This document shows, one piece after another, positions 6,126 through 64,000 of a stretch of 64,000 nucleotides of DNA. The stretch lies in sequence record OP557969.1. The stretch is one strand, 5' to 3'. The translations under genes and the position numbers were made by a program. The stretch's first letter is position 1. The number at the start of each line of letters is the position of its first letter. This stretch comes from Escherichia phage ph0011. The notes under the pieces are model-generated. The model was not told the origin of the DNA, did no database searches, and saw only the letters and a program-made list of their open reading frames with translations.

Positions 6126-6944
6126 ATGACAAAATTAAATGAATTCTTATCAAATATAGCAGTTCTTGATACTGAAACCACTGGCGTTGAAAGTGATGAT
6201 GATATTATTGAATTTAGTATCTCATATCCATATACTTCACATGAAAACATTGATACTATTGATAACTATACATTGCGATATAAACCACTGAAAGATATTC
6301 CACCAGAAGCATCGGCTGTTCACTTTATCAGTACTGAGGATGTAGCTAATTGTGTTGGGTATAAAGATGATTTAGATAACATAGATGCACTTATGGGATG
6401 CCGTAAGTATTTTGTTGGTCATAATGTACAATTTGACCGTAGAATGATGGTAGATAATGAATATAAATATCGTAACTCAGTTTCACAGTACTTACTCGAT
6501 GAAGATAAATGGATTTGTACTCTTCGTTTGGCTAAGAAAATGTTTGCAGAAGATACCGAATATAAAAACTTAACTCTAAGTTATTTGTGGTATAAGTTTG
6601 GATGCCATCGAGATGTTCACAGACCTATTAATGCTCACGCGGCAAAAGATGATGTATTCATGTGTTATCAGGTTCTAATCAAATTGGTTGAAATTGCCAT
6701 CGAACGTGGTCATATTGATTCCAATGGGGATATTGGTGAACAAATAGTAGCTTTTTGTAACACCCCAATGCGTTATCAATTCATGCCATTTGGTAAACAT
6801 AAAGGTGAGCCAATGAATACAGTACCATTGAATTACATTGAATGGATGATCACTAATAGTGACATTTTAGATGCAAGTAACCCTAACTGTGATAAAGATT
6901 TAGTATATACATTTGAGTACGAATATAATACTCGAACTAATTAA
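6126..6944 (+). CDS. DnaQ-like 3'-5' exonuclease (DEDDh family) with C-terminal extension
   Basis: Exo I LDTETTG, Exo II HNVQFD, Exo III HAAKDD. Confidence 0.6.
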   Translation: MTKLNEFLSNIAVLDTETTGVESDDDIIEFSISYPYTSHENIDTIDNYTLRYKPLKDIPPEASAVHFISTEDVANCVGYKDDLDNIDALMGCRKYFVGHNVQFDRRMMVDNEYKYRNSVSQYLLDEDKWICTLRLAKKMFAEDTEYKNLTLSYLWYKFGCHRDVHRPINAHAAKDDVFMCYQVLIKLVEIAIERGHIDSNGDIGEQIVAFCNTPMRYQFMPFGKHKGEPMNTVPLNYIEWMITNSDILDASNPNCDKDLVYTFEYEYNTRTN

Positions 6945-6959
6945 CAAAGGTAATCATGG

Positions 6960-9539
6960 ATGAAAATTTGTAAGTTAACTTTATTGGATGAGGTGAATTG
7001 TAAATTTGAGGGACTAGATCCCTCAATTCGACAAAAGATGATTCGTGCAACTGAATATGTGCTACCATATGCAAAGTTTACACCAGCAGGTCGTATTGGG
7101 CGTTGGGATGGTAAAGTACAATTCATGAACTTAGGTGGAAGCACATACTTTCATATGCTTGATAAACTTTTACCTATTCTTGACGAAGCTAATATTGATA
7201 TTGAATTAGAAGATCATAGACTAAATTACGGTTTCGAATTTGAACCAATTGATGAAAATATTTTTAGCGATGTTGTTTTTGGTCCTGGACACCACATGGA
7301 AGGTAAAAGTATTATCCTACGTGAACATCAGGTAAATGCAGTAAATTCGTGTTTAGCTAACCCACATGGGTTGGTTCTGGCAGCAACTGGTGCAGGAAAA
7401 GCCCAGCCACTTGATGAACCAGTTCTTACCATTAATGGATGGAAACGAATGGGTGACATAAAAGTTGGCGATATAGTAAAATGTCCTGATGGAACAAATG
7501 CTCCCGTCCTTGGTGTATATCCACAGGGAATTAAACCAACAGTACGAATGACATTCTCGGATGGACGAAGTGTCGAATGTTGTGATGAACATTTATGGAA
7601 TATATATAGTATTGCTGGTGAAAAAAACCCTGAAAAACGATGGAGAAACCTTTCTGTTAAAGAAATCATTGAATTACAAAATAAACAAAAACGTCCAGTA
7701 TATATTAAAACAATCACTGGTGATATTTTTGAAGAAAAAGAATTACCAATACATCCATATATTTTAGGTGTATTACTCGGTGATGGATGTTTAAGAAATG
7801 GTAATATAATGTTATCAAGTTCAGATGAATTTGTTATTGATAAGGTATCTTCATTATTACCTGATGGTTATATTATCAAGAAAAAACAATCATCAAAATA
7901 TGATTATAGTATTGTCATGGATGATACAAAAAAGAAAGAATATTTATGTAAAAATAATAAAGAAAGATATAACGAACTTAGGGTTATTTTGGAAGAACTT
8001 GGAATTTATAATAAGTATTCATATGAAAAGTTTATCCCTGAAATTTACAAAATGTCATCAATTGAACAACGTCTGCAACTCATTCAAGGATTAATTGACA
8101 CGGATGGTTATGTTGATAAAAGATTAAAAAACGGAAAGTCCCGAAATGTGGTGGAATTTTGTAGTACATCAGAAAAATTGGTTGATGATTTGAAAGATAT
8201 AATGAATAGTTTAGGTGGTTACGGTATTAAAAAATCTAAACAAACTTATTATACCTATGCAGGGGTAAAACAAAAAGGTCGCCCAAGTTTTAAAATGAGA
8301 ATTGATTATAATAATCTTAATGCCTTGGCTAGTTTACCTCGCAAAAAAGACTTTTTATATTCAGAAAGAAATCGTGTTGAAAATAAACTAAAAATTGAAA
8401 AAATTGAATATATTGAAGATAAAGAATGTCAATGTATCTATATTGATCATCCAGAACATCTATATATTACCAGAGATTATATCGTAACACACAATACAAT
8501 TATTTGTGCTGCTTTGGCGAAATCGGTACAAAAATATGGACGTTCTGTTATCATTGTCCCCAGCACTGACCTAGTACAACAAACATATGATGATTACATT
8601 ATGTGTGGATTAGATGCTGGTATGTTCTATGGTGCACAGAAAGATTTTGGTCATCAACATACTATTACTACTTGGCAATCATTTAACTCTCTATGGAAGA
8701 AAACCAAAAAAGGTGAAATTGAATTAACAGAACAAGACGTAAATGATTTTATTGATGGGGTAGTTTGTGTTATAGTTGATGAGTGTCAAGGTGCTGGTGG
8801 TGATGCATTAGTTCAAGTACTATCTAAAGTTATGAACAACGTACCATTGCGTTGGGGTCTTACTGGTACAATTCCGAAAGATCCGGTTGTTGCAGCGAAA
8901 ATCAAATGTAATGTTGGTGATGTTATATATAAAATCACTGCAAAGGAATTACAAGATAAAAAGATACTAAGTACATGTAATGTGAATTGCATTAAACTAA
9001 AAAGTAGTATGAAGTTTGCATCATATGCTGAAGAGTTGAAATACTTAGTAACTGACAGAGATAGAATGGCATATGTAGCGTCATTGATATCTGCGTTATC
9101 TGAATCAGGAAACACTTTAGTTTTAGTAGATAGACTTGAAGCAGGTGAGTTGCTATGTGAATTTTTAGGCATTCCCAAATCAGAATTCGTTCGTGGAGAA
9201 ACTAAAAAGAAAGATCGAGAATCATCTTATGGTGAAATTCGTTGGGCTGATAATAAAATACTTATTGCGACATACGGCGTTGCCAGTACTGGTATCAGTA
9301 TTTCAAGGCTATACAATGTAGTATTGATTGAACCTGGAAAAAGTTTCGTAAGAACTATACAATCAATCGGACGTGGATTACGCCGTGCTGAAGACAAAGA
9401 CCATGTTGAAATATATGACATTAGTGGTTCTAATAAGTATAGTGCAAAGCATTTACGTGAGCGTCTCGCTTACTATAAGGAAGCACAATATCCTCATACA
9501 GTAATAGACGTTAAAGATTGGGAAAACACAGCGGGATAA
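6960..9539 (+). CDS. uvsW: UvsW-like SF2 helicase interrupted by an in-frame intein
   Basis: Extein motifs: Walker A ATGAGK|T split by the intein, DECQ box, GLTGT, QSIGRGLRR (motif VI). Confidence 0.7.
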   Translation: MKICKLTLLDEVNCKFEGLDPSIRQKMIRATEYVLPYAKFTPAGRIGRWDGKVQFMNLGGSTYFHMLDKLLPILDEANIDIELEDHRLNYGFEFEPIDENIFSDVVFGPGHHMEGKSIILREHQVNAVNSCLANPHGLVLAATGAGKAQPLDEPVLTINGWKRMGDIKVGDIVKCPDGTNAPVLGVYPQGIKPTVRMTFSDGRSVECCDEHLWNIYSIAGEKNPEKRWRNLSVKEIIELQNKQKRPVYIKTITGDIFEEKELPIHPYILGVLLGDGCLRNGNIMLSSSDEFVIDKVSSLLPDGYIIKKKQSSKYDYSIVMDDTKKKEYLCKNNKERYNELRVILEELGIYNKYSYEKFIPEIYKMSSIEQRLQLIQGLIDTDGYVDKRLKNGKSRNVVEFCSTSEKLVDDLKDIMNSLGGYGIKKSKQTYYTYAGVKQKGRPSFKMRIDYNNLNALASLPRKKDFLYSERNRVENKLKIEKIEYIEDKECQCIYIDHPEHLYITRDYIVTHNTIICAALAKSVQKYGRSVIIVPSTDLVQQTYDDYIMCGLDAGMFYGAQKDFGHQHTITTWQSFNSLWKKTKKGEIELTEQDVNDFIDGVVCVIVDECQGAGGDALVQVLSKVMNNVPLRWGLTGTIPKDPVVAAKIKCNVGDVIYKITAKELQDKKILSTCNVNCIKLKSSMKFASYAEELKYLVTDRDRMAYVASLISALSESGNTLVLVDRLEAGELLCEFLGIPKSEFVRGETKKKDRESSYGEIRWADNKILIATYGVASTGISISRLYNVVLIEPGKSFVRTIQSIGRGLRRAEDKDHVEIYDISGSNKYSAKHLRERLAYYKEAQYPHTVIDVKDWENTAG
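7401..8495 (+). mobile_element. Intein (365 aa) with LAGLIDADG homing-endonuclease domain inside the helicase P-loop
   Basis: Begins right after GAGK; LAGLIDADG-like LLGDGCL and LIDTDGYVD; ends IVTHN (N at 8493-8495) followed by extein T; length is a multiple of 3. Confidence 0.75.
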
Positions 9540-51700: not shown

Positions 51701-52837
51701 ATGGCAGAGAAAGAAATCAATCCAAAAAAATCGTCAACAGTCACTAAAAACACCAAACGTTCTTCCAAAACTGCGACGAAGGGTCACACAATTGATGCAA
51801 GTGATATTTTCAACCAAACAACAAAGTCACTCCCAGTTCTAAAAGATGTAAAGGGTAATACCATGTCACTAACAGTTCAAAACATCAACACTGTTGGTAC
51901 AACTGCTGGTGCGGCGGTTGGTCGTTTGGCTGATGAAATTATGTCTAAGGTTAACGTAACCGATGACAATACCGAGTTTGGTAAATCAATCACTACAATT
52001 CTCACATTGACCCGTGCGGTTGATATTGATAGTCTTCAGGAAGATAAATCAATTGTTGGTCGCATTAAGAAATTCTTTGTTAATGCCCAACAGAAAGTTG
52101 GCGATCAATACAAAAATAGTAAAGAACAAATTGATGAAATTATGAAAACTCTACAAACTGGCATCAATCGCCAACATGGAGAGTGTGAGTGGCTTGATAA
52201 AGCATATAATGAAAACAAAGAATATTTGTTCGAATTACGTGATACATTAGTTGGTTTAGAAGAAGTAACTAAAGCACAAGATGCAGTACTGGCAGAAATG
52301 CAAGCAAACAAAGATGTGGACTCTTTTGCTATTCAAGAACAAAAGATGATTTGTGAAGCACTTTCTAAGCAAGAAGACAAGATTCGCCGACTTATCATGA
52401 TGTGTGAACTGAGTGGTCCACGATTGATGAGTATGAAAAAAGTAAACTTAAACACTGTTTCTAAGTTTGAAGATTTGAAATCAGTAGTAATTCCCGCATG
52501 GAAATCGCAATTGGCTGAACAGCTAATCTCTGAGCGTCAACGTAAGGATAATGAATTGGGAAATCTAATTGACAATGAAACAAATCGTTTATTAGAGACT
52601 AACTCTAAGATGGTTGCAGCTAATATGCTGGATGCTGCAAAGGCAAACAATCGTGGTATTGTGGATATTAAAACCTTGCGTAATGTACATAAAACAATGA
52701 TTGACAGCATTGAAGCTGTTATTGAAGAAGAGAAAAAAGGTAAAATGGAACGTGAACGTGCGAAACAAGAAATCGCACAACTTTCACACGAACTCGAAGA
52801 CACACTTCGTGAAATTGCAGAAAAAGCTAACAAGTAA
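51701..52837 (+). CDS. Hypothetical coiled-coil protein (378 aa)
   Basis: ORF with GAGGAA RBS; helical and charged throughout. Confidence 0.55.
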   Translation: MAEKEINPKKSSTVTKNTKRSSKTATKGHTIDASDIFNQTTKSLPVLKDVKGNTMSLTVQNINTVGTTAGAAVGRLADEIMSKVNVTDDNTEFGKSITTILTLTRAVDIDSLQEDKSIVGRIKKFFVNAQQKVGDQYKNSKEQIDEIMKTLQTGINRQHGECEWLDKAYNENKEYLFELRDTLVGLEEVTKAQDAVLAEMQANKDVDSFAIQEQKMICEALSKQEDKIRRLIMMCELSGPRLMSMKKVNLNTVSKFEDLKSVVIPAWKSQLAEQLISERQRKDNELGNLIDNETNRLLETNSKMVAANMLDAAKANNRGIVDIKTLRNVHKTMIDSIEAVIEEEKKGKMERERAKQEIAQLSHELEDTLREIAEKANK

Positions 52838-57295: not shown

Positions 57296-57566
57296 ATGTT
57301 GGGTATGTTGTAAGCATTTCGATGAAGAATATGATATTTCTTTGGATGTATACCATCAGCAATACATGATATCATCGGGAAAATATAAACTAGATACCTT
57401 CCCAACTCCTAAGTATATGGGGATTTGTCCATTGTGTAATGGGAATGGTGTATTAGACATTGTTATTGAATTCACAAATACACAAACTACTGATTGTGTT
57501 GCCGCATATATAAGAGATAATCTTGATTTTTTCACTAGGAGATTATATGAACGAGAAAATATTTAA
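57288..57566 (+). CDS. Hypothetical Cys-rich small protein (92 aa)
   Basis: CWVCCKHF ... CPLCNGNG. Confidence 0.45.
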   Translation: MTKCWVCCKHFDEEYDISLDVYHQQYMISSGKYKLDTFPTPKYMGICPLCNGNGVLDIVIEFTNTQTTDCVAAYIRDNLDFFTRRLYERENI

Positions 57567-57783
57567 TTCATATAATATGGAAGATTTACTAATACCATCC
57601 GAGAACAGTACTGTTAAGATGCAAATGTATTGGTTAGTAAAAGATGGTAAAGTATTTCAACACAAAGTTACAAAAGTATGGCAATGTAACAAAAACAAGT
57701 CAATAGTTGATACACTAGCAACTGCATTTCCAGGGGTGGAGGTTGTATTTTTACCAGTTGCTTATATTAAGGAAATAAAATGA
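57547..57783 (+). CDS. Hypothetical protein
   Basis: ATG at 57547 preceded by GGAG. Confidence 0.45.
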   Translation: MNEKIFNSYNMEDLLIPSENSTVKMQMYWLVKDGKVFQHKVTKVWQCNKNKSIVDTLATAFPGVEVVFLPVAYIKEIK

Positions 57784-57947
57784 AAAAAACATGGACAATA
57801 TTCGTAATACCTATTATAATGTTGTTATTGGTAATCACGGTTCCACAAGTATACGTTGTTGCTTTGAATGTGGTGGAAATTATTCTTCTTGTAATTCATT
57901 GCCTTGTGTGTTATTACTACGTAAAATGGGATGATAAAAAAATATGA
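57780..57947 (+). CDS. Small membrane protein (55 aa) absent from the ORF track
   Basis: ATGA overlaps at both ends link it to the neighbours; hydrophobic core IFVIPIIMLLLVITVPQVYVVALNVVEIILLVI. Confidence 0.4.
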   Translation: MKKTWTIFVIPIIMLLLVITVPQVYVVALNVVEIILLVIHCLVCYYYVKWDDKKI

Positions 57948-58366
57948 AGTACTATCGAATTCGAGTTGGTGTAAGCTCAGGTTTTAGTAATTGGGTATAT
58001 TATGATTTGCCTGATAGCTATACCGTAGAAGATGTAATTAACTTATATTATGAAGAAGAGACATGGGTACTCAGTACTGAAACACATAGTGTAGTGTGTG
58101 AAGAGCTATGTGCCGAAGATTACAAGCACTGTGTCCAAGCAATGAAGTATTACAGTAAAGAAGTGAAGATGTTATCTGAAAACATTTTTCCGGTAAAAGA
58201 ATGGGCAATTTTACTTGCAAATCCTAACAAACCTGTTAGAATTGGTTATCCAAACAATCATATGGTTTATCGAATGAATAACAAACGTGAGCTAAGTTAT
58301 CAGTATGATTACAGTGCTTCTAAGTTTGGAGTTCTACCACAATTTAAAAAGGCTTATCCAGTATGA
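57944..58366 (+). CDS. Hypothetical protein (140 aa)
   Basis: ORF. Confidence 0.5.
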   Translation: MKYYRIRVGVSSGFSNWVYYDLPDSYTVEDVINLYYEEETWVLSTETHSVVCEELCAEDYKHCVQAMKYYSKEVKMLSENIFPVKEWAILLANPNKPVRIGYPNNHMVYRMNNKRELSYQYDYSASKFGVLPQFKKAYPV

Positions 58367-58698
58367 GCAATGACAGCAAAGAATTTATAGTACGTTGTAG
58401 TTGTGGTGATAATACTGAACATTGTATTCACATTGCACAATATGACTTGACACAAGAAGATGGAGATGGTAAACTTGGTCAATGTTTGGTGAGTATGCGT
58501 TTGAATCCTTTCTTAAAATGGCACAAACGTATATTGGTTGGGTTGAAGTATATTTTCGGTGTAAACGATTTTCAATACAAAGAAGCAATGATTGATGTTG
58601 ACATTCTGAAAGAAGTTGTGTTACAATTAGAAGACACCCGTCCCGATGAGGTAAAGAAAGAAGAAAGAGATAAACGTAGTGATGTGAAGGTTTTATGA
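58363..58698 (+). CDS. Hypothetical protein (111 aa)
   Basis: ORF. Confidence 0.5.
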   Translation: MSNDSKEFIVRCSCGDNTEHCIHIAQYDLTQEDGDGKLGQCLVSMRLNPFLKWHKRILVGLKYIFGVNDFQYKEAMIDVDILKEVVLQLEDTRPDEVKKEERDKRSDVKVL

Positions 58699-58889
58699 GT
58701 ACTGAACTTTATGAAAAAAAGTACTGTACAAATTGCTCAACTGAGTATACAATACAAGGTATGTTAATTTGTACAATATGTAAGTCAAAAGAATCAGCTA
58801 CATTCATAGTTGATGATAGATTTAGTGATTTAAAACAGTTTAAAGCAAACCGCAATCTTCGTATTTTTAGCAATCTAAATAAGGAATAA
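58695..58889 (+). CDS. Small zinc-ribbon protein (64 aa)
   Basis: CTNCSTEY ... CTICKS (C-x2-C ... C-x2-C). Confidence 0.45.
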   Translation: MSTELYEKKYCTNCSTEYTIQGMLICTICKSKESATFIVDDRFSDLKQFKANRNLRIFSNLNKE

Positions 58890-58895
58890 CATTTT

Positions 58896-59324
58896 ATGAA
58901 TATCGAACAAATCATCCGTAATCATTCTTTCTTCGCCCCAGAGACTGGTCGTGTAATTGAGAATGTCAAAATCGAAGAACTTATGGTGAATGTTAAATAC
59001 AAAGAACCAAATGATGAGATTAGTAGCACTTTTTGTGCACTTCGTGCACCATTCCGCAATGAAAAAGCAAAAAAACCAGCATATGTTCTTGCAATTGCTT
59101 TAGGATGTGTTGTTAAACTTGCAGTTGATGAAAATATTATTAATATCAAAGTCGCCCCTACCAATGACGAAGAAAACATTGATTTGAACTTTGATGGTAA
59201 TCTCGACGAAGATGTATTTTTTCAACAGTCACTTGTTTATGACTTCCGTACCGTGACATATTCACATATTAACTTCGTCAATGAAATGGTTGATATTGTA
59301 GCCAAATATGAAGAATCTCTATAA
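58896..59324 (+). CDS. Member of FQxSL paralog family
   Basis: C-terminal DEDVFFQQSLVYDFRTVTYSHINFV shared with the genes at 60538-62643. Confidence 0.55.
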   Translation: MNIEQIIRNHSFFAPETGRVIENVKIEELMVNVKYKEPNDEISSTFCALRAPFRNEKAKKPAYVLAIALGCVVKLAVDENIINIKVAPTNDEENIDLNFDGNLDEDVFFQQSLVYDFRTVTYSHINFVNEMVDIVAKYEESL

Positions 59325-59334
59325 TTAAATCATA

Positions 59335-59360
59335 AAAGCCTCCATGTTGGAGGCTTTTCT
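59335..59360 (+). terminator. Rho-independent terminator
   Basis: agcctcca-tgt-tggaggct followed by tttct. Confidence 0.6.
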
Positions 59361-59381
59361 CACATAAGGAAATGAAGAAAT

Positions 59382-59933
59382 ATGATTGAACAAATTAATA
59401 TTCTCACACAACAAATTACCGACTTTCTCTCAGATAAAGAAGGTTTCAAAACTGAAGTGAAAATGCACGGCGTTAGTCTTGATGTAATTTCACCAGATGG
59501 AAATGTTACAAATTATGATATGTACGAATTGTTTCTTTACACTTTAGCAGTACGTAAACTAGGAAGTGACATTGAACTAAACATTAACACTGATAGTGAT
59601 GGAAATAAAATTTTTGCAATCAATACAAGTGCTAAGTATGATGTTAGTGCAGAAATTAAAAAAATTAACGATAGCTTTGTTGGTTTCACCCATGATTCAA
59701 TTCAAGGTGTTTTTGTAGGTAAACAAACTTCATCAAGTCAATGTCCATTTTGTATTATGACTTTATATAAAAATGGTGATTGGATGCGACAAGACTTGGT
59801 ATATGCTGAAATGTTGTATGCATTTACACATGGTCTAGAAATTGAATTAGATGATAGTGCTTTTTGCTTTAAGAAAATCCGAAAACTCACAAATGATATT
59901 CAAAAGCAACTTAAAGAATTAAATGATAAATAA
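59382..59933 (+). CDS. Hypothetical protein (183 aa)
   Basis: ORF with AAGGAA RBS. Confidence 0.5.
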   Translation: MIEQINILTQQITDFLSDKEGFKTEVKMHGVSLDVISPDGNVTNYDMYELFLYTLAVRKLGSDIELNINTDSDGNKIFAINTSAKYDVSAEIKKINDSFVGFTHDSIQGVFVGKQTSSSQCPFCIMTLYKNGDWMRQDLVYAEMLYAFTHGLEIELDDSAFCFKKIRKLTNDIQKQLKELNDK

Positions 59934-60042
59934 ATGTACCAGAAGTGGTTAACATATCATGTTATTTTCCTCCCTTACATAATAATGATGCGTTATTAGA
60001 TTTTCATTTTATTATTTCTTTTTTGTACAAAATCATATTAGT

Positions 60043-60068
60043 ACTGCCCCGTATATCGGGGCATTTTA
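60043..60068 (+). terminator. Rho-independent terminator
   Basis: tgccccg-tatat-cggggca followed by tttta. Confidence 0.55.
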
Positions 60069-60090
60069 TTATCTAAAATATGGTGATTTT

Positions 60091-60482
60091 ATGAAAAACA
60101 TTGGCTCTTCTATACAAAAAGACCTTTCATTTTACCTTAATAAATTCAGAAGTATAAATGGTAATAAATTTAATAGTATCTATCAGTTCACACATAAAGA
60201 ATATATTACTATTGATCCCTTTTCAAAAAACTGATGTATGTTAATGATAATAATTATAGTGTTAAATTATCATTCGATATTGTGTTGGATAAATTAACAT
60301 TTACGGAATACACTACCAATAAAACTTCATTTTTACACAAGTATAATAGAAAGGTATATAATCATATTTCTAGTTATTTAAATGAAGAATATTACTTTCA
60401 ACAATCTACAATAGAAAAAGTATTATTCAGTACTGAAGAATTAAAAGAATTATATTATTGGTATGAGAAATTTACATCTTGA
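60091..60482 (+). CDS. Possible split or frameshifted member of the FQxSL family (47-aa ORF 60091..60234 plus 82-aa ORF 60234..60482)
   Basis: Two adjacent ORFs in different frames joined by TGATG; the downstream part carries EYYFQQSTIEKVL. Confidence 0.35.
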
Positions 60483-60537
60483 CATTATGGTGGTTTCATC
60501 TTACAATACAAGATAATGATGCGTTGAGGACAAATTC

Positions 60538-60948
60538 ATGAGTATAGATTTACACAATGAACTACAATATTTTTTTGATTTGGATATATCACGTTTGAAC
60601 AGACATGTCAATCATATATCCAGAACTATATGGTGGTCTGATGAGGCTGATGAACCAAGGATTCAGATTTGTGATAATTTGTCAGTTTTAAGATTGTATG
60701 TTCTTGATACCGAAATGAATATTATGATAACATACGTACCACCCACAAACAAACTTCTAATCAACACACTAAACCCAGATACAGTACTGAAAATTTTTGA
60801 TTTGGATACGATACAGTCAAGCGAAACACTATTCCAACGTTCATTGGTTGATGATCTAGGGGGTATTTCTTTTGACGATATATTAAAATTGAAGAAGATG
60901 TATAATGAATTATTAGAGATTAAAAATACCGTTCTAATGGGGATTTAA
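60538..60948 (+). CDS. FQxSL paralog family member
   Basis: SETLFQRSLVDDLGGISFDDI. Confidence 0.55.
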   Translation: MSIDLHNELQYFFDLDISRLNRHVNHISRTIWWSDEADEPRIQICDNLSVLRLYVLDTEMNIMITYVPPTNKLLINTLNPDTVLKIFDLDTIQSSETLFQRSLVDDLGGISFDDILKLKKMYNELLEIKNTVLMGI

Positions 60949-60949
60949 T

Positions 60950-61354
60950 ATGGTAAGTTTATTAGATATTGATAATACTAGTCTGGTTCTGGTGAAAAAA
61001 GGATTAATTCCAAATTCTAACAAGATTGATTATGCTGTTATTGAAACAAATATTGGGAATATCTGGTACGACTCTGAAAGAGACATTGTGTTTAGCTGTG
61101 TAGATAGTGATCGTTCTGAGTGCTGTAGGGTTGGGCATGACGGACAATTTATTTTCGAATTTCGTTTCTGGAAAGATTCCAGATTTCACCAGGAGCATGT
61201 TTCAATTACAAATGTAAATTGTAATGAAGAATCATTCTTCATGGAAAGTACTATTAATGATTTTGGCTCAGTTACTTTTGAGTACTATAAAAAAGTATAT
61301 AACTTGTACAGAGAAGTAATTCGAATCATAAGAACCTCTGAGGGTCAAGATTAA
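60950..61354 (+). CDS. FQxSL paralog family member (variant motif)
   Basis: NEESFFMESTINDFGSVTFEYY. Confidence 0.5.
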   Translation: MVSLLDIDNTSLVLVKKGLIPNSNKIDYAVIETNIGNIWYDSERDIVFSCVDSDRSECCRVGHDGQFIFEFRFWKDSRFHQEHVSITNVNCNEESFFMESTINDFGSVTFEYYKKVYNLYREVIRIIRTSEGQD

Positions 61355-61355
61355 T

Positions 61356-61733
61356 ATGACTACTACCATATATAATATTTTAGGTAACTTGAATAAAAAC
61401 ATAGATAATGATTTTGTTATAGTTGAAAACACTAAAAATATAATTCATCTACCATTGGGTACACCAGATAGGTTAATTTTTAACATATACGCTAACACAC
61501 TGACATACATACACGATGGTATGGTTATCGTTGTGCTTGATATTAAAGAAAATACAATACGATATGCATATGACTTTAACGTTTATTGGTCAAGAACTCA
61601 TAGTATTGATATTGAGGAAGATGAACTTTTTCAATTATCGTTAATTGAGAAAAATGTAATAGGAGTTACCGAGATTGGTATTGTTAAAAAAGCTTTGGAA
61701 TATGCAAATAAAAAAATAAATGGCGAACTATGA
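61356..61733 (+). CDS. FQxSL paralog family member
   Basis: EEDELFQLSLIEKNVIGVTEI. Confidence 0.5.
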   Translation: MTTTIYNILGNLNKNIDNDFVIVENTKNIIHLPLGTPDRLIFNIYANTLTYIHDGMVIVVLDIKENTIRYAYDFNVYWSRTHSIDIEEDELFQLSLIEKNVIGVTEIGIVKKALEYANKKINGEL

Positions 61734-62194
61734 TGAACATTGAGGAAATAAAAAATCATTTTGAAATTGCATTGTCTTGTGATTTTGATAGTTGTTATGT
61801 TACTGAACCAGAAGATATAATTAGAATTTCCACATCGTTTTCAGAAGAATACAATATACTCATTGAGAAATCATATGACAGAACCGAACTCTCATTTTAC
61901 AATAAGGATTTACGAACAACATCATTTATATTATTATATAACACAACATCGGATATAATAGAGATTATAACAAGTAAAACAGGTAAAACAAGTAAAGATG
62001 TACATTATGAGACTATACCAAATGTAAGTTATTGTTCAACAGAAGAAGGATACTTCCAGGAATCACTTATTAAAAATTTATCAGTTAGCTATTCTGATTT
62101 AAGCATTATAGTCAATTATGTGGAAAAGTTAAATGATTTCGTTCTATCGATGTTTGATATCACTGAGCAAAAACCAAAGGAAATCAAATGTTAA
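61730..62194 (+). CDS. FQxSL paralog family member
   Basis: TEEGYFQESLIKNLSVSYSDL. Confidence 0.5.
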   Translation: MMNIEEIKNHFEIALSCDFDSCYVTEPEDIIRISTSFSEEYNILIEKSYDRTELSFYNKDLRTTSFILLYNTTSDIIEIITSKTGKTSKDVHYETIPNVSYCSTEEGYFQESLIKNLSVSYSDLSIIVNYVEKLNDFVLSMFDITEQKPKEIKC

Positions 62195-62643
62195 ATCCTG
62201 GACATTTTTTTCATTTACTGGACATTACACCTATACCCGATTTGATCAGCGAGACTAATCATTATCGTGATATTGGAATTGTATCAATGGAATATGATTC
62301 ACCTGACTTTAAATGTTACGTAACATACGATCAGGTGGCTTATGAGTCAGAGCCTGAGATTAAAAAACCATCATATATTTTTGTGTTCATATATAATGAT
62401 TATAGTGGTGATGTACTGAATGATGTTCATATTGACACATTTGAAATATGTGGTAATATTATATCAGATGATTCAGCATCCACATTTGATTTGGAATTAA
62501 ACAGTACTGAAGAGTCACTTTTTCAGTTGAGTACTATATGTGATACTATATTAACTCTAGATGACATTGAGAAATTTAAAGAACAGCTTGACGCAGTTCG
62601 TGAGATGTTCTATAATCATTATCCAGAAGTAGAGTTCAATTAA
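62188..62643 (+). CDS. FQxSL paralog family member
   Basis: TEESLFQLSTICDTILTLDDI. Confidence 0.5.
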   Translation: MLNPGHFFHLLDITPIPDLISETNHYRDIGIVSMEYDSPDFKCYVTYDQVAYESEPEIKKPSYIFVFIYNDYSGDVLNDVHIDTFEICGNIISDDSASTFDLELNSTEESLFQLSTICDTILTLDDIEKFKEQLDAVREMFYNHYPEVEFN

Positions 62644-62657
62644 CTAAAGGTAATAAA

Positions 62658-62918
62658 ATGACAAAAGTAGTTCGTAAACGCCACATGATGAATATGGATG
62701 AATTTCGTACATTTGACAAATATCGTACTATGTTTCGTATGCTGTCACAGGGTCGCCCAATCGTCATTGTAACAGAGAATTACATGTCACCTGAGATTAT
62801 GTTTGGTAATTACGAAAAGGTCTTCATGTTGTACGTGAAGCGTGGATTGCTTACAATCAAGACATTAGCTGAAGCAACTGATGATGATATGGATGGAGAT
62901 AATACCTTTACCATGTGA
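62658..62918 (+). CDS. Hypothetical protein (86 aa)
   Basis: ORF. Confidence 0.45.
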   Translation: MTKVVRKRHMMNMDEFRTFDKYRTMFRMLSQGRPIVIVTENYMSPEIMFGNYEKVFMLYVKRGLLTIKTLAEATDDDMDGDNTFTM

Positions 62919-62996
62919 GGAAATATATGTCTGAAAAACCAAAAGAACCTTTAGATCGTGATGATGATTTTTATGACGAACGATATGGAGATGATA

Positions 62997-63248
62997 ATGA
63001 GTAAAAATAGTGCGGTGCTTAAAAAGATTTTAAAGGAAATTGATGGTGAATTTAATGTCACAGAAGAAGAATATCAGCATTGGAAGAAAGATTTCGAACA
63101 ACTAACCGAGTATGATAAAGTGTTCAATATGATTGGCGTAATTAGCCAGTACTTACTTGGTGGAGGACGTGCAAGTGCTTCAATTCTGGCATCTGCAATC
63201 ATCTGCACATCACGATGGTGTGATGAAAAAAGTTTGGAAGATTTCTAA
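62997..63248 (+). CDS. Hypothetical protein
   Basis: ATG at 62997 preceded by GGAG; the track's 62958 start runs through Met-rich upstream codons. Confidence 0.45.
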   Translation: MSKNSAVLKKILKEIDGEFNVTEEEYQHWKKDFEQLTEYDKVFNMIGVISQYLLGGGRASASILASAIICTSRWCDEKSLEDF

Positions 63249-63254
63249 ATAAGA

Positions 63255-63263
63255 TGCTATAAT
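63255..63263 (+). promoter_or_regulatory. Extended -10 element TGcTATAAT upstream of the methyltransferase gene
   Basis: gatgctataat at 63253-63263. Confidence 0.35.
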
Positions 63264-63300
63264 ATATCAGAGTACCTTAACAATATAAAAAGGATTTTAT

Positions 63301-64000
63301 ATGAAACCTATCCGAGTACTATCTCTTTTTAATGGAATGAGTGTAGGATACATGGCATTAAAAGATGCTGGTATCCCTGTTGAAAAATATTATTCATCCG
63401 AAATTGACAAATTTGCTATAGCTGAATCCCAAGCTAACTTCCCCGATATAATCCAATTGGGTGATGTAACTAAGTGGAGAGAATGGGATATTGAATGGGA
63501 CAAGATAGATCTACTGATGGGTGGTTTTCCATGCTTCCCAGCAGGAACTATGATAATGACAAATAAAGGTCATAAAGATATAAAAGATATAAAAATTGGT
63601 GATATGGTTCTTACACACACTGGACAGTACCAAAAAGTATTGAGTACTGGTGTTAAAAAGGCTCCCACTCGTATTATTACGGGTCAAGGTCACCTTCCAA
63701 TTGAATGTACCGATAATCATCCATTTTGGAGTAGGGAACGTCTAGCCAATAAATGGAATAATCAACGCCGAAGATATGATTCTGTGTTTTCTGAACCGCA
63801 ATGGGTAAATGCTATAGATCTTACTAAACAAAGTTATATTTGTAATGTTAAAAATATTACACATAATACTGTAAGTGATAAAGATGAAAAATATTGGTAT
63901 TTTGTTGGTCGTTTTATGGGTGATGGATGTGCTAGTGTATCTAATAACAAATACAGTATTACTATTGTAGATTCATTAGATAAAGTTGATGAATTGAAAA
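63301..64000 (+). CDS. DNA (cytosine-5) methyltransferase, N-terminal part, interrupted by an intein; 3'-truncated at window edge
   Basis: Motif I region VLSLFNGMSVGYMAL and motif IV GGFP-C parallel M.HhaI (FIDLFAGLGG ... ILCAGFPCQ); frame open to nt 64000. Confidence 0.6.
   Translation, partial: MKPIRVLSLFNGMSVGYMALKDAGIPVEKYYSSEIDKFAIAESQANFPDIIQLGDVTKWREWDIEWDKIDLLMGGFPCFPAGTMIMTNKGHKDIKDIKIGDMVLTHTGQYQKVLSTGVKKAPTRIITGQGHLPIECTDNHPFWSRERLANKWNNQRRRYDSVFSEPQWVNAIDLTKQSYICNVKNITHNTVSDKDEKYWYFVGRFMGDGCASVSNNKYSITIVDSLDKVDELK
63532..64000 (+). mobile_element. Intein N-terminal part with LAGLIDADG motif inserted at the methyltransferase Pro-Cys motif; continues beyond the window
   Basis: Begins CFPAGTMIMTNKGHKDIKDIKIGDMVL (intein block A-like); LAGLIDADG-like FVGRFMGDGC near 63900. 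Confidence 0.6.

Follow-up and report, generated by a model that had tools for sequence, protein, structure and literature searches.

A predicted intein at the catalytic Pro-Cys motif of a C5-cytosine DNA methyltransferase in Asteriusvirus jumbo coliphages

Sequence comparison confirmed that a methyltransferase gene at the end of the window (the whole 64,000-nucleotide stretch of Escherichia phage ph0011, record OP557969.1, that was analysed) is interrupted by a predicted intein, exactly at the catalytic Pro-Cys motif. Very probably the gene encodes the precursor of an orphan C5-cytosine DNA methyltransferase, from which a class 1 intein would excise itself, and this intein would home into intein-less alleles of the same gene. 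The window belongs to Asteriusvirus, that is, to a 121Q/PBECO4-like jumbo coliphage, in agreement with the first-pass annotation of this DNA, which had assigned the gene to a phage.

The open reading frame starts with the ATG at 63301-63303 on the plus strand and stays open through base 64000, the end of the window, giving 233 translated amino acids. Direct reading of the sequence revealed a Shine-Dalgarno-like AAGGA at 63290..63294 (+), 6 nt 5' of the ATG, and the record of the related phage UE-S1 has a ribosome binding site annotated at the corresponding position. A promoter-like site was picked up further upstream by a consensus scan (TTGGAA, 18 nt, TG-TATAAT; 63234..63263, +; 10 of 12 matches, with the TG of an extended -10). 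The region holds no more such sites than shuffling would yield, and this one is only suggestive. No terminator-like sites were found in the methyltransferase gene region, and the window has neither tRNA genes nor Rfam families at gathering score.

The window ends within the intein; the C-terminal junction and the C-terminal half of the gene were read in L015, a metagenome contig from ENA (ERZ27258023:k141_54157), and in UE-S1, a 93%-identical phage. Over window positions 57302-64000, L015 shows 99.8% identity (6700 nt aligned, with 13 mismatches and 1 gap). It encodes the whole precursor, at L015:6001-7881, and differs from the window at one of the 233 amino acids. For UE-S1, 231 of the 233 are identical. 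Window and L015 together give a precursor of 626 amino acids, made up of a 77-aa N-extein, a 340-aa intein and a 209-aa C-extein. The full intein lies at L015:6232-7251 and L001:6480-7499. When L015 was compared by BLAST with the intein-less phage 121Q, the alignment broke at 6234 and resumed at 7252, in agreement with the first of these intervals.

Both exteins carry the motifs of a C5-methyltransferase. The N-extein (63301..63531, +) matches the Pfam C-5 methylase profile (PF00145, 324 positions), window residues 4-80 lying on positions 1-73 (E = 3.1e-10), and this match bears out the earlier assignment of the first 77 residues to C5-methyltransferase motifs I-IV. It contains motif I (LSLFNGMSVG, where LFNGMSVG is a variant of the SAM-binding FxGxG), the motif II region (SSEID) and motif IV as far as GGFP. 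Against a cutoff of 22 bits, the window fragment scored 40.5, the UE-S1 precursor 101.4 and the intein-less 121Q orthologue 131.9 bits. In amino acids, the N-extein is 94–97% identical to the products of the intein-less genes of 121Q, G17 and vB_Ec-M-J. Motifs VI-X lie in the C-extein, whose first residue is the motif IV catalytic Cys (CQAWS). Numbered along the spliced protein, ENV is found at 120-122, RQR at 153-155 and GNGW at 269-272 (motifs VI, VIII and X) in L015 and UE-S1 alike. Among C5-methyltransferase structures, the intein-less orthologue matched the DNMT3 catalytic domains (E = 3e-23) as well as M.HaeIII and M.HhaI (∼1e-17). These are the features of a small orphan C5-cytosine DNA methyltransferase, which we predict to be the gene product, with the N-extein as its SAM-binding half.

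The window translation across the N-terminal junction reads ...IDLLMGGFP/CFPAGTMIMTNKGHKDIKDIKIGDMVL... (a slash marks a junction throughout), and window residues 77-134 cover the start of the Pfam family Hint_2 (E = 9.6e-9; 36.2 bits against a cutoff of 28.4). The intein therefore starts at the expected catalytic Cys, as the first-pass annotation had proposed. Since the PF00145 and Hint_2 scores both lie above the curated thresholds, the matches are not due to chance. In L015 and UE-S1, the 340-aa intein ends with ...NNIVVHN and is followed by CQAWSVAGKQGG; at this junction, VVHN/CQAWS, the motif IV catalytic Cys occupies the +1 position. The motif IV sequence GGFPC is present only after in silico splicing. 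Removal of residues 78-417 from the UE-S1 precursor leaves 286 aa, the length of 121Q gp91, with GGFPCQAWSVAGKQGG uninterrupted. The spliced product is colinear with the intein-less 121Q gene across GGFP/CQAWSVAGKQGG, and the sequence of the 121Q allele at the insertion point is GGTGGTTTCCCA/TGCCAAGCCTGGTCA. As the exteins rejoin colinear with intein-less 121Q, the catalytic Cys would also be the +1 nucleophile of the intein.

We infer that the intein is removed after translation by the canonical four steps, in which an N-S acyl shift at Cys1 would be followed by trans-thioesterification onto Cys+1, cyclisation of Asn340 and an S-N shift. The outcome would be a Pro77-Cys78 peptide bond, and with it the Pro-Cys dipeptide of the active site. 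Because 340 residues interrupt its catalytic loop, the precursor should be unable to methylate DNA, and the methyltransferase is predicted to be active only after splicing. The first-pass annotation had set this dependence on splicing against the alternative that the catalytic Cys is intein residue 1 with a second Cys at +1. The second Cys is there and the dependence on splicing is predicted; it is the either/or that falls, as the two hold together.

Had the insertion instead inactivated the gene, the intein would no longer splice and the methyltransferase would be a dispensable, pseudogene-like relic. The methyltransferase is an accessory gene, and the interrupted gene of Mannheimia phage 587AP2 does look broken, with a frame that stops 16 residues past the junction (CQSDKGG...) and two annotated CDSs. 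However, the 1.9-kb frame is intact in L015, UE-S1, TH47, JNE01 and A4 despite an intein divergence of up to 45%, and every splicing residue is conserved. The exteins are, moreover, 76–97% identical in amino acids to the intein-less alleles (91–97% for the N-extein and 76–92% for the C-extein), with all the catalytic motifs kept, and inactivation is very hard to reconcile with this picture. The placement of the intein on the catalytic nucleophile, with cysteines at both junction residues, raises another scenario, in which the phage has turned the intein into a switch: splicing would depend on conditions, for example on the redox state of a Cys1-Cys+1 disulfide or on infection timing, and would gate the methylation of phage DNA. 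Other inteins, the RadA intein among them, are known to splice conditionally in broadly this way. We consider such a role improbable here: no sequence feature demands it, ∼89% of the related phages do without the intein, and hundreds of unrelated methyltransferases show the same layout, which is what a selfish element aimed at a conserved motif would produce. A methyltransferase precursor matured by a self-excising intein is the reading that we prefer.

The part of the intein that lies inside the window comprises the N-terminal 156 of its 340 residues (63532..64000, +), all 156 of which are identical in the UE-S1 intein (99.6% identity at the DNA level). Block A (CFPAGTMIMTNKG; 63532..63570, +) opens with Cys1, which is residue 78 of the precursor (codon 63532-63534), and its C1, G5 and G13 are invariant in an alignment of 20 inteins. 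Block B (IECTDNHPFW, with the TxxH motif; 63700..63729, +) holds Thr60 (codon 63709-63711) and His63 (codon 63718-63720); T60, H63 and P64 are kept by at least 90% of the aligned family members. The first LAGLIDADG motif, YFVGRFMGDG (63898..63927, +), has the G126 and D131 that are invariant in this alignment, the codon of the catalytic Asp131 being 63922-63924. The second motif, FIKGYMDADG, with D223, lies past the window in L015 and UE-S1 (Pfam LAGLIDADG_3, E = 3.4e-10), and in both the C-terminal blocks F/G read VYNIEVAVDNTYTANNIVVHN, ending in His-Asn. The first-pass annotation had staked its reading on what lies past the window end, and there the F/G block, the +1 Cys and the ENV, RQR and GNGW motifs were all found. 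The signature residues C1, T60-x-x-H63, D131, D223, K198, H339-N340 and C+1 are all present. The alignment of 20 same-site inteins shows no variation at C1, D131, K198, D223 and N340, and at least 90% conservation at T60 and H63. The presence of H339 and C+1 was established by direct reading; the penultimate residue varies in the wider family, where it is His in 104 of 111 members.

Searched by sequence against the PDB, the intein matched nothing but the gp41-1 mini-intein, and that weakly; we therefore used structure prediction and fold search. The AlphaFold2 model of the intein has a mean pLDDT of 91.1 and a pTM of 0.89, with the endonuclease half modelled at high confidence. The best matches of the model in a Foldseek search of the PDB were PI-SceI from yeast VMA1 (E = 2e-18) and the Thermococcus litoralis VMA intein (TliVMA; TM-score 0.73 to 7qsu), and after these came PhoVMA and PI-PfuI. 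The endonuclease half matched I-DmoI and I-Tsp061I at E around 1e-6, and residues 119-263 of the model follow the alpha-beta-beta-alpha-beta-beta-alpha pattern of the pseudo-dimeric LAGLIDADG fold. Like the model, PI-SceI and TliVMA consist of a HINT domain with an inserted double-motif LAGLIDADG endonuclease. They differ from the window intein in sequence (14–17% identity) and in host protein, which is a V-ATPase subunit. The window intein is 85–110 residues shorter than either, and PI-SceI has an extra DNA-recognition region. Motifs and fold together point to a class 1 intein of the HINT fold, carrying a predicted homing endonuclease with two LAGLIDADG motifs.

Among 37 Escherichia/Salmonella Asteriusvirus-like records, four have the intein (UE-S1, TH47, JNE01 and A4) and 33 lack it; the four inteins form one clade with a bootstrap of 100 in a neighbour-joining tree. 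TH47 resembles JNE01 from the insertion point as far as nt 414 of the spliced gene; past nt 414, it is 95–100% identical to the intein-less vB_Ec-M-J allele in each 60-nt bin to the end of the gene. The window phage and UE-S1 have in common a 2.7-kb island of 93–99% identity that spans the methyltransferase gene, and the flanks of this island are 63–78% (upstream) and 84–95% (downstream) identical. These values were taken from gapped BLAST alignments, the MAFFT global alignment being unreliable upstream of 62400. Recombination footprints thus appear to flank the intein, as homing would leave. A candidate intein-specific co-conversion tract, made up of residues common to all intein-bearing alleles within the first ∼62 C-extein residues, was rejected, as the intein-less EJP2 and Hallingskeid alleles have these residues too.

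In the homing step, the freed intein would cut intein-less alleles at the sequence encoding GGFP/CQAW during co-infection by Asteriusvirus phages, and repair off the intein-bearing copy would transfer the intein together with neighbouring extein sequence. Such site-specific cleavage is predicted from sequence and is supported indirectly by the scattered occurrence of the inteins, by their monophyly and by the recombination footprints. The identity island could alternatively be the product of ordinary recombination and not of endonuclease-driven homing, because these phage genomes are mosaic throughout.

A related possibility, which we regard as real although not the favoured one, is that, in the window/UE-S1 lineage, the intein still splices while its endonuclease is decaying or already dead. 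The element would then be inherited vertically and moved by ordinary recombination, and would be turning into a mini-intein. The window/UE-S1 endonuclease is the most divergent among the Asteriusvirus inteins: the domain is ∼55% identical to the TH47/JNE01/A4 type, with the splicing blocks nearly identical. Seven residues are missing just after the first LAGLIDADG motif, and the sequence reads IKNKLVNQ in place of the IEGRxVNQ that is nearly invariant in the family. This divergence, the deletion and the substitutions suggest that the endonuclease may be losing activity, and shortened inteins and mini-inteins of 140–289 aa at the same site in other methyltransferases indicate that endonuclease loss does occur in the family. 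On the other hand, this lineage keeps both catalytic aspartates (D131 and D223) as well as K198 and the glycines in each of the two motifs, and the endonuclease half is among the confidently modelled parts of the intein. The near identity of the intein DNA (99.6%) in two phages whose upstream flanks are so dissimilar also points to a recent transfer. We keep an intein that both splices and homes as the preferred reading.

The insertion point is not peculiar to Asteriusvirus. A search of 1.84 billion representative proteins returned 5,600 strong matches to the intein, and among the best 150 of these 5,600, 111 have the same junction, P/C...N/C[QTK]xxS, of C5-methyltransferases. All nine same-site proteins tested proved to be PF00145 members, in which the profile match restarts at position 71 past the intein. 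The same Pro/Cys insertion point is used in Dmt of the P1-like RCS47, in gp50 of Propionibacterium phage B22, in Lactobacillus phage Nyseid, in Mannheimia phage 587AP2 and in at least 111 metagenomic clusters. These inteins have the same junction signature (P/CF.AGT ... HN/CQ..S), likewise a class 1 plus LAGLIDADG layout, and a similar length (312–367 aa). They are only 25–34% identical to the window intein and reside in phages and bacteria belonging to other phyla. No intein is annotated in the deposited records of RCS47, B22, Nyseid and 587AP2, NCBIfam has no dedicated model for the same-site intein, and our literature search turned up no account of an intein at the C5-methyltransferase Pro-Cys motif or in Asteriusvirus. 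Judged by their sequences, inteins at the P/C site of C5-methyltransferases are common in the databases, and the Asteriusvirus intein is a further example.

Several known inteins invite comparison. The methylase inteins of actinobacteriophages (PMC5050341; PMC9957025; bioRxiv 10.1101/2025.01.02.630785) are likewise of the LAGLIDADG type and reside in orphan phage DNA methyltransferases; like the window intein, they are patchily distributed, with evidence of horizontal transfer. In the table of Kelley et al. 2016 (PMC5050341), the methylase inteins are in N6/N4 methylases (PF01555), unlike the C5 host of the window. C-5 methylases (IPR001525) are among the intein hosts of the 2025 survey (bioRxiv 10.1101/2025.01.02.630785), the text portion of which does not describe the insertion site in them. 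The methylase intein in gp75 of mycobacteriophage DocMcStuffins occupies another site (HV/C...KN/CPLQF) and is 24% identical to the window intein. In the same broad jumbo-phage group, the Rak2-like phages RaK2 and K64-1 have terminase inteins (PMC5259590) of the Hint plus LAGLIDADG type, in a different host gene. The window terminase also carries a Hint plus LAGLIDADG intein; the terminase and helicase inteins of the window end with THN/T, which is class 3-like and not class 1.

The thymidylate synthase intein of Aeromonas phage PS1 is related to the window intein (30.5% identity, E = 2e-23) and likewise splits a catalytic Pro-Cys (LTP/CHFSF, at the PCH nucleophile of ThyA), although the host enzyme family is different. 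In both C5-methyltransferases and thymidylate synthase, a Cys attacks C6 of the pyrimidine to methylate C5. The neighbour-joining tree puts the PS1 intein among the methyltransferase inteins without bootstrap support. A specific nesting of the ThyA and NrdD inteins within the methyltransferase inteins was not supported, the deep nodes of the tree having no bootstrap support; a switch of host protein is therefore offered here as conjecture. It is conceivable, but on our estimate rather unlikely, that a LAGLIDADG intein lineage has specialised on the Pro-Cys of pyrimidine-C5-methylating enzymes, where the catalytic Cys serves as +1 and Pro at -1 is tolerated. Such a lineage would have moved between enzyme families that are unrelated to each other, the C5 DNA methyltransferases with PCQ in motif IV and thymidylate synthase with PCH, by way of the short coding motif CCN-TGY-CAN that both have. 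The Asteriusvirus intein would then be one tip of a large radiation linking DNA modification and nucleotide synthesis genes in phages of at least three bacterial phyla.

The interrupted gene is labelled as a plain methyltransferase in UE-S1 and A4 and as a hypothetical protein in JNE01, and is unannotated in TH47. The UE-S1 paper counts it as a protective methyltransferase and does not mention a need for prior splicing. The intein offers a handy natural marker of genetic exchange among jumbo phages that are candidates for therapy. Many engineered inteins handle a junction with Pro at -1 and Cys at +1 poorly, and the wider family, a large set of predicted inteins with a native Pro at -1 and the catalytic Cys at +1, could be useful in protein engineering. 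The finding does not overturn current understanding, in which inteins are expected at the conserved catalytic motifs of phage DNA-metabolism genes.

The methyltransferase ORF starts on the + strand at ATG 63301 and is still open at the end of the window (63301-64000), 233 aa being read from it. An AAGGA sequence is located 6 bases upstream of this ATG, and a promoter-like TTGGAA-18-TG-TATAAT (63234-63263, + strand) is present upstream of the ORF. Residues 1-77, running from MKPIRVLSLFNGMSVG through LLMGGFP, were aligned by Pfam with its C-5 methylase profile (profile positions 1-73, E = 3.1e-10), and from residue 77-78 on the translation matched the beginning of the Hint domain models (Hint_2, E = 9.6e-9), both above the curated cutoffs. 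These two matches confirmed the first-pass annotation, which had described a C5-methyltransferase N-terminus up to GGFP followed by an intein-like block; the text quoted for that block, CFPAGTMIMT...IKIGDMVL, is present exactly in the window translation.

The gene region is matched by 35 phage records, all from Escherichia/Salmonella jumbo phages belonging to Asteriusvirus, the 121Q/PBECO4 group, and nearly all the matches end at 63533-63535, the first codon of the intein. The match of phage UE-S1 reaches the window end, and a 626-aa "cytosine specific methyltransferase" is annotated there; the intein-less gene of 121Q codes for 286 aa. A metagenomic protein from the profile search, also of 626 aa (P0049), differs by 1 residue from the 233 aa of the window. 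Its source contig, ENA ERZ27258023:k141_54157 (L015), shares 99.8% identity with window 57302-64000, the 6700 nt containing 13 mismatches and 1 gap, and is effectively the same phage. It also extends beyond the window end, into the sequence called for in the first-pass annotation.

From L015 and UE-S1, the precursor was divided into an N-extein (residues 1-77), an intein of 340 aa (residues 78-417, CFPAGT... to ...VYNIEVAVDNTYTANNIVVHN) and a C-extein (residues 418-626, starting CQAWSVAGKQGG). Deletion of the intein in silico yielded a 286-aa protein colinear with 121Q gp91, with the canonical motif IV at GGFP/CQAWS (a slash marks an intein junction) and the later motifs ENV, RQR and GNGW at 120-122, 153-155 and 269-272 of the spliced numbering. 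Consistent positions were observed in a BLAST comparison of L015 with 121Q, where the gap (6234-7252) is coincident with the intein (6232-7251), and a Pfam search with the full precursor gave Hint_2, Intein_splicing and LAGLIDADG_3 as well as DNA_methylase, the last broken into separate pieces. As a separate observation, the 286-aa 121Q gp91 (L002:4879-5739, the intein-less orthologue) aligned end-to-end with the eukaryotic DNMT3A/B/C catalytic domains (E = 3e-23), and by sequence is less close to bacterial M.HaeIII and M.HhaI (E ~1e-17).

We aligned 20 inteins inserted at the same site of other methyltransferases. C1, G5, G13, G126, D131, K198, G218, D223, G224 and N340 were invariant, and T60, H63 and P64 were at least 90% conserved; therefore, the window intein is complete for the class 1 splicing residues and for both LAGLIDADG aspartates. 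An AlphaFold2 model of the intein, with this alignment as input, had a mean pLDDT of 91 and a pTM of 0.89. Its best PDB matches were PI-SceI (E = 2e-18), the TliVMA intein (TM 0.73), PhoVMA and PI-PfuI, and the endonuclease half of the predicted structure was matched by I-DmoI. We concluded that the catalytic Pro-Cys of this phage C5-methyltransferase is very probably interrupted by a genuine class 1 intein that carries a LAGLIDADG endonuclease. In the window phage and UE-S1 the endonuclease is of uncertain activity: 7 residues are missing after motif 1, and IKNKLVNQ stands where IEGRxVNQ is conserved; with both aspartates in place, a decaying endonuclease is a possible reading, but a doubtful one.

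The splicing steps can be inferred from the well-established chemistry of inteins together with the residues conserved here. Intein Cys1 takes the place of the catalytic Cys in the precursor, the true catalytic Cys being the +1 residue. In the class 1 pathway, a thioester at Cys1 would be transferred to Cys+1, followed by Asn340 cyclisation and an S-N shift, and Pro77 would thereby be joined to the catalytic Cys, creating the active site. The precursor is expected to be inactive because 340 residues are inserted within the catalytic loop. A second Cys at +1 and activity only after splicing, offered earlier as alternatives, would thus hold together.

The intein is present in just four (UE-S1, TH47, JNE01 and A4) of the 37 Escherichia/Salmonella records with this methyltransferase, and it is absent from the more distant relatives EJP2 and Erwinia phage Hallingskeid. 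The four inteins form one clade (bootstrap 100) and are of two types, ∼55% identical to each other, whose divergence lies almost wholly in the endonuclease domain, the splicing blocks being nearly identical. In phage A4 (L010:2270-4168) the intein is a mosaic: over the first 196 nt it has 86.7% identity to the window/UE-S1 type (window 63532-63727), and in the endonuclease domain it belongs with TH47/JNE01 (77% aa identity), which suggests recombination inside the intein. At informative sites, TH47 resembles JNE01 between the insertion point and nt 414 of the spliced gene; from nt 438 to the gene end it resembles almost exclusively the intein-less vB_Ec-M-J allele, to which it is 100% identical over nt 420-540. 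Such a pattern is what homing would leave if ∼190 nt of the 3' flank were co-converted. The window phage and UE-S1 also have in common a 2.7-kb island of 93-99% identity (window ∼62400-64000, continuing to L015:7800), comprising the methyltransferase gene and 900 bp upstream with three small ORFs; identity outside it is 63-78% upstream and 84-95% downstream, and the intein DNA itself is 99.6% identical. The evidence for mobility is tempered by the mosaicism found everywhere in these genomes. An intein-specific block at the protein level was dropped as a candidate, as intein-less outgroups have the same block.

Two further inteins, in a terminase and a helicase, are present within the window. 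The large terminase subunit ORF is open from base 1 (stop 1852-1854), and bases 1-480 code for the last 160 aa of a LAGLIDADG intein ending IPTHN/TTVAAAF, its N-terminal part being upstream of the window. This intein is covered in only 3 of 37 relatives, most of which, 121Q and PBECO4 included, match only from ∼477-490 on. The helicase intein (365 aa with a LAGLIDADG domain; 7401-8495, in ORF 6960-9539) interrupts a UvsW-like helicase within its Walker A motif, with junctions LAATGAGK/AQPLDEPVLT...YIVTHN/TIICAALAK. Its residue 1 is Ala, not Cys or Ser, and the Trp, Cys and Thr of blocks B (DEHLWNIY), F (CQCIYID) and G, respectively, make up the class 3 pattern. None of 43 related phage records has this intein; all align in two segments that together cover 56% of the gene. 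Among the replication and nucleotide-metabolism proteins encoded in the window are gp32-like, RecA/UvsX-like and DnaB-like proteins, topoisomerase II subunits, a clamp-loader protein, a class I ribonucleotide reductase and a TelA-like protein; the last (378 aa, 51701-52837; TelA toxic-anion-resistance family, E = 2.4e-38) is an unusual cargo in a region of phage replication genes.

Related inteins were also observed in other enzymes. A 337-aa intein of Aeromonas phage PS1, 30.5% identical to that of the window, is inserted in thymidylate synthase (L013:781-3039; annotated just as 'putative thymidylate synthase') between Pro and Cys of LTP/CHFSF, the ThyA catalytic PCH motif (MSLTP/C...THN/CHFSF), a site of the same kind as that of the methyltransferase. 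Pro-Cys nucleophile chemistry is common to C5-methyltransferases and ThyA. Lactococcus phage 949 NrdD has a related intein at RV/CGY, beside the glycyl-radical site. In a neighbour-joining tree both inteins fell among the methyltransferase inteins, without support. A switch of host protein through the coding motif CCN-TGY-CAN, common to C5-methyltransferases and ThyA, is a hypothesis, and a rather unlikely one.

An intein at the Pro-Cys site of a C5-methyltransferase is not very unusual. The first database search, with the intein alone as query, found 31 metagenomic proteins, most with PF00145 and Hint domains and 25 with the junction [ST]P/CF.AGT...N/C[QTK]..S. An exhaustive profile search of 1.84 billion representative proteins gave 5,600 hits at E <= 1e-30; the P/C...N/C[QTK]xxS junction was present in 111 of the best 150. 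The median length of these 111 inteins is 344 aa; 108 of them have Phe as residue 2, and in 104 the last residue but one is His. All nine same-junction proteins checked are C-5 methylases whose profile match picks up at position 71 past the intein. P1-like phage RCS47 Dmt, Propionibacterium phage B22 gp50, Lactobacillus phage Nyseid and Mannheimia phage 587AP2 have inteins at this same site, none annotated as such. In vB_MhS_587AP2 the intein-bearing gene is annotated as two CDSs (genes 35 and 34, L005:1264-3100); its frame ends 16 residues past the C-terminal junction (HN/CQSDKGG...) and the remainder of the methyltransferase is in another frame, due to either gene decay or a frameshift error.

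Mycobacteriophage methylase inteins are known, but in N6/N4 enzymes and at another site (PMC5050341); that of DocMcStuffins gp75 likewise differs in site from the Pro-Cys of the window. PMC9957025 is another study of actinophage methylase inteins, and a 2025 preprint (bioRxiv 10.1101/2025.01.02.630785) includes C-5 methylases in its list of actinophage intein hosts, the accessible text giving no detail. Our literature search found no description of the Pro-Cys insertion site in C5-methyltransferases or of any Asteriusvirus intein, and the UE-S1 paper mentions no intein. The window intein is therefore a previously unremarked example of a known element type, one of a large, essentially uncharacterised family whose members can be seen in the databases.
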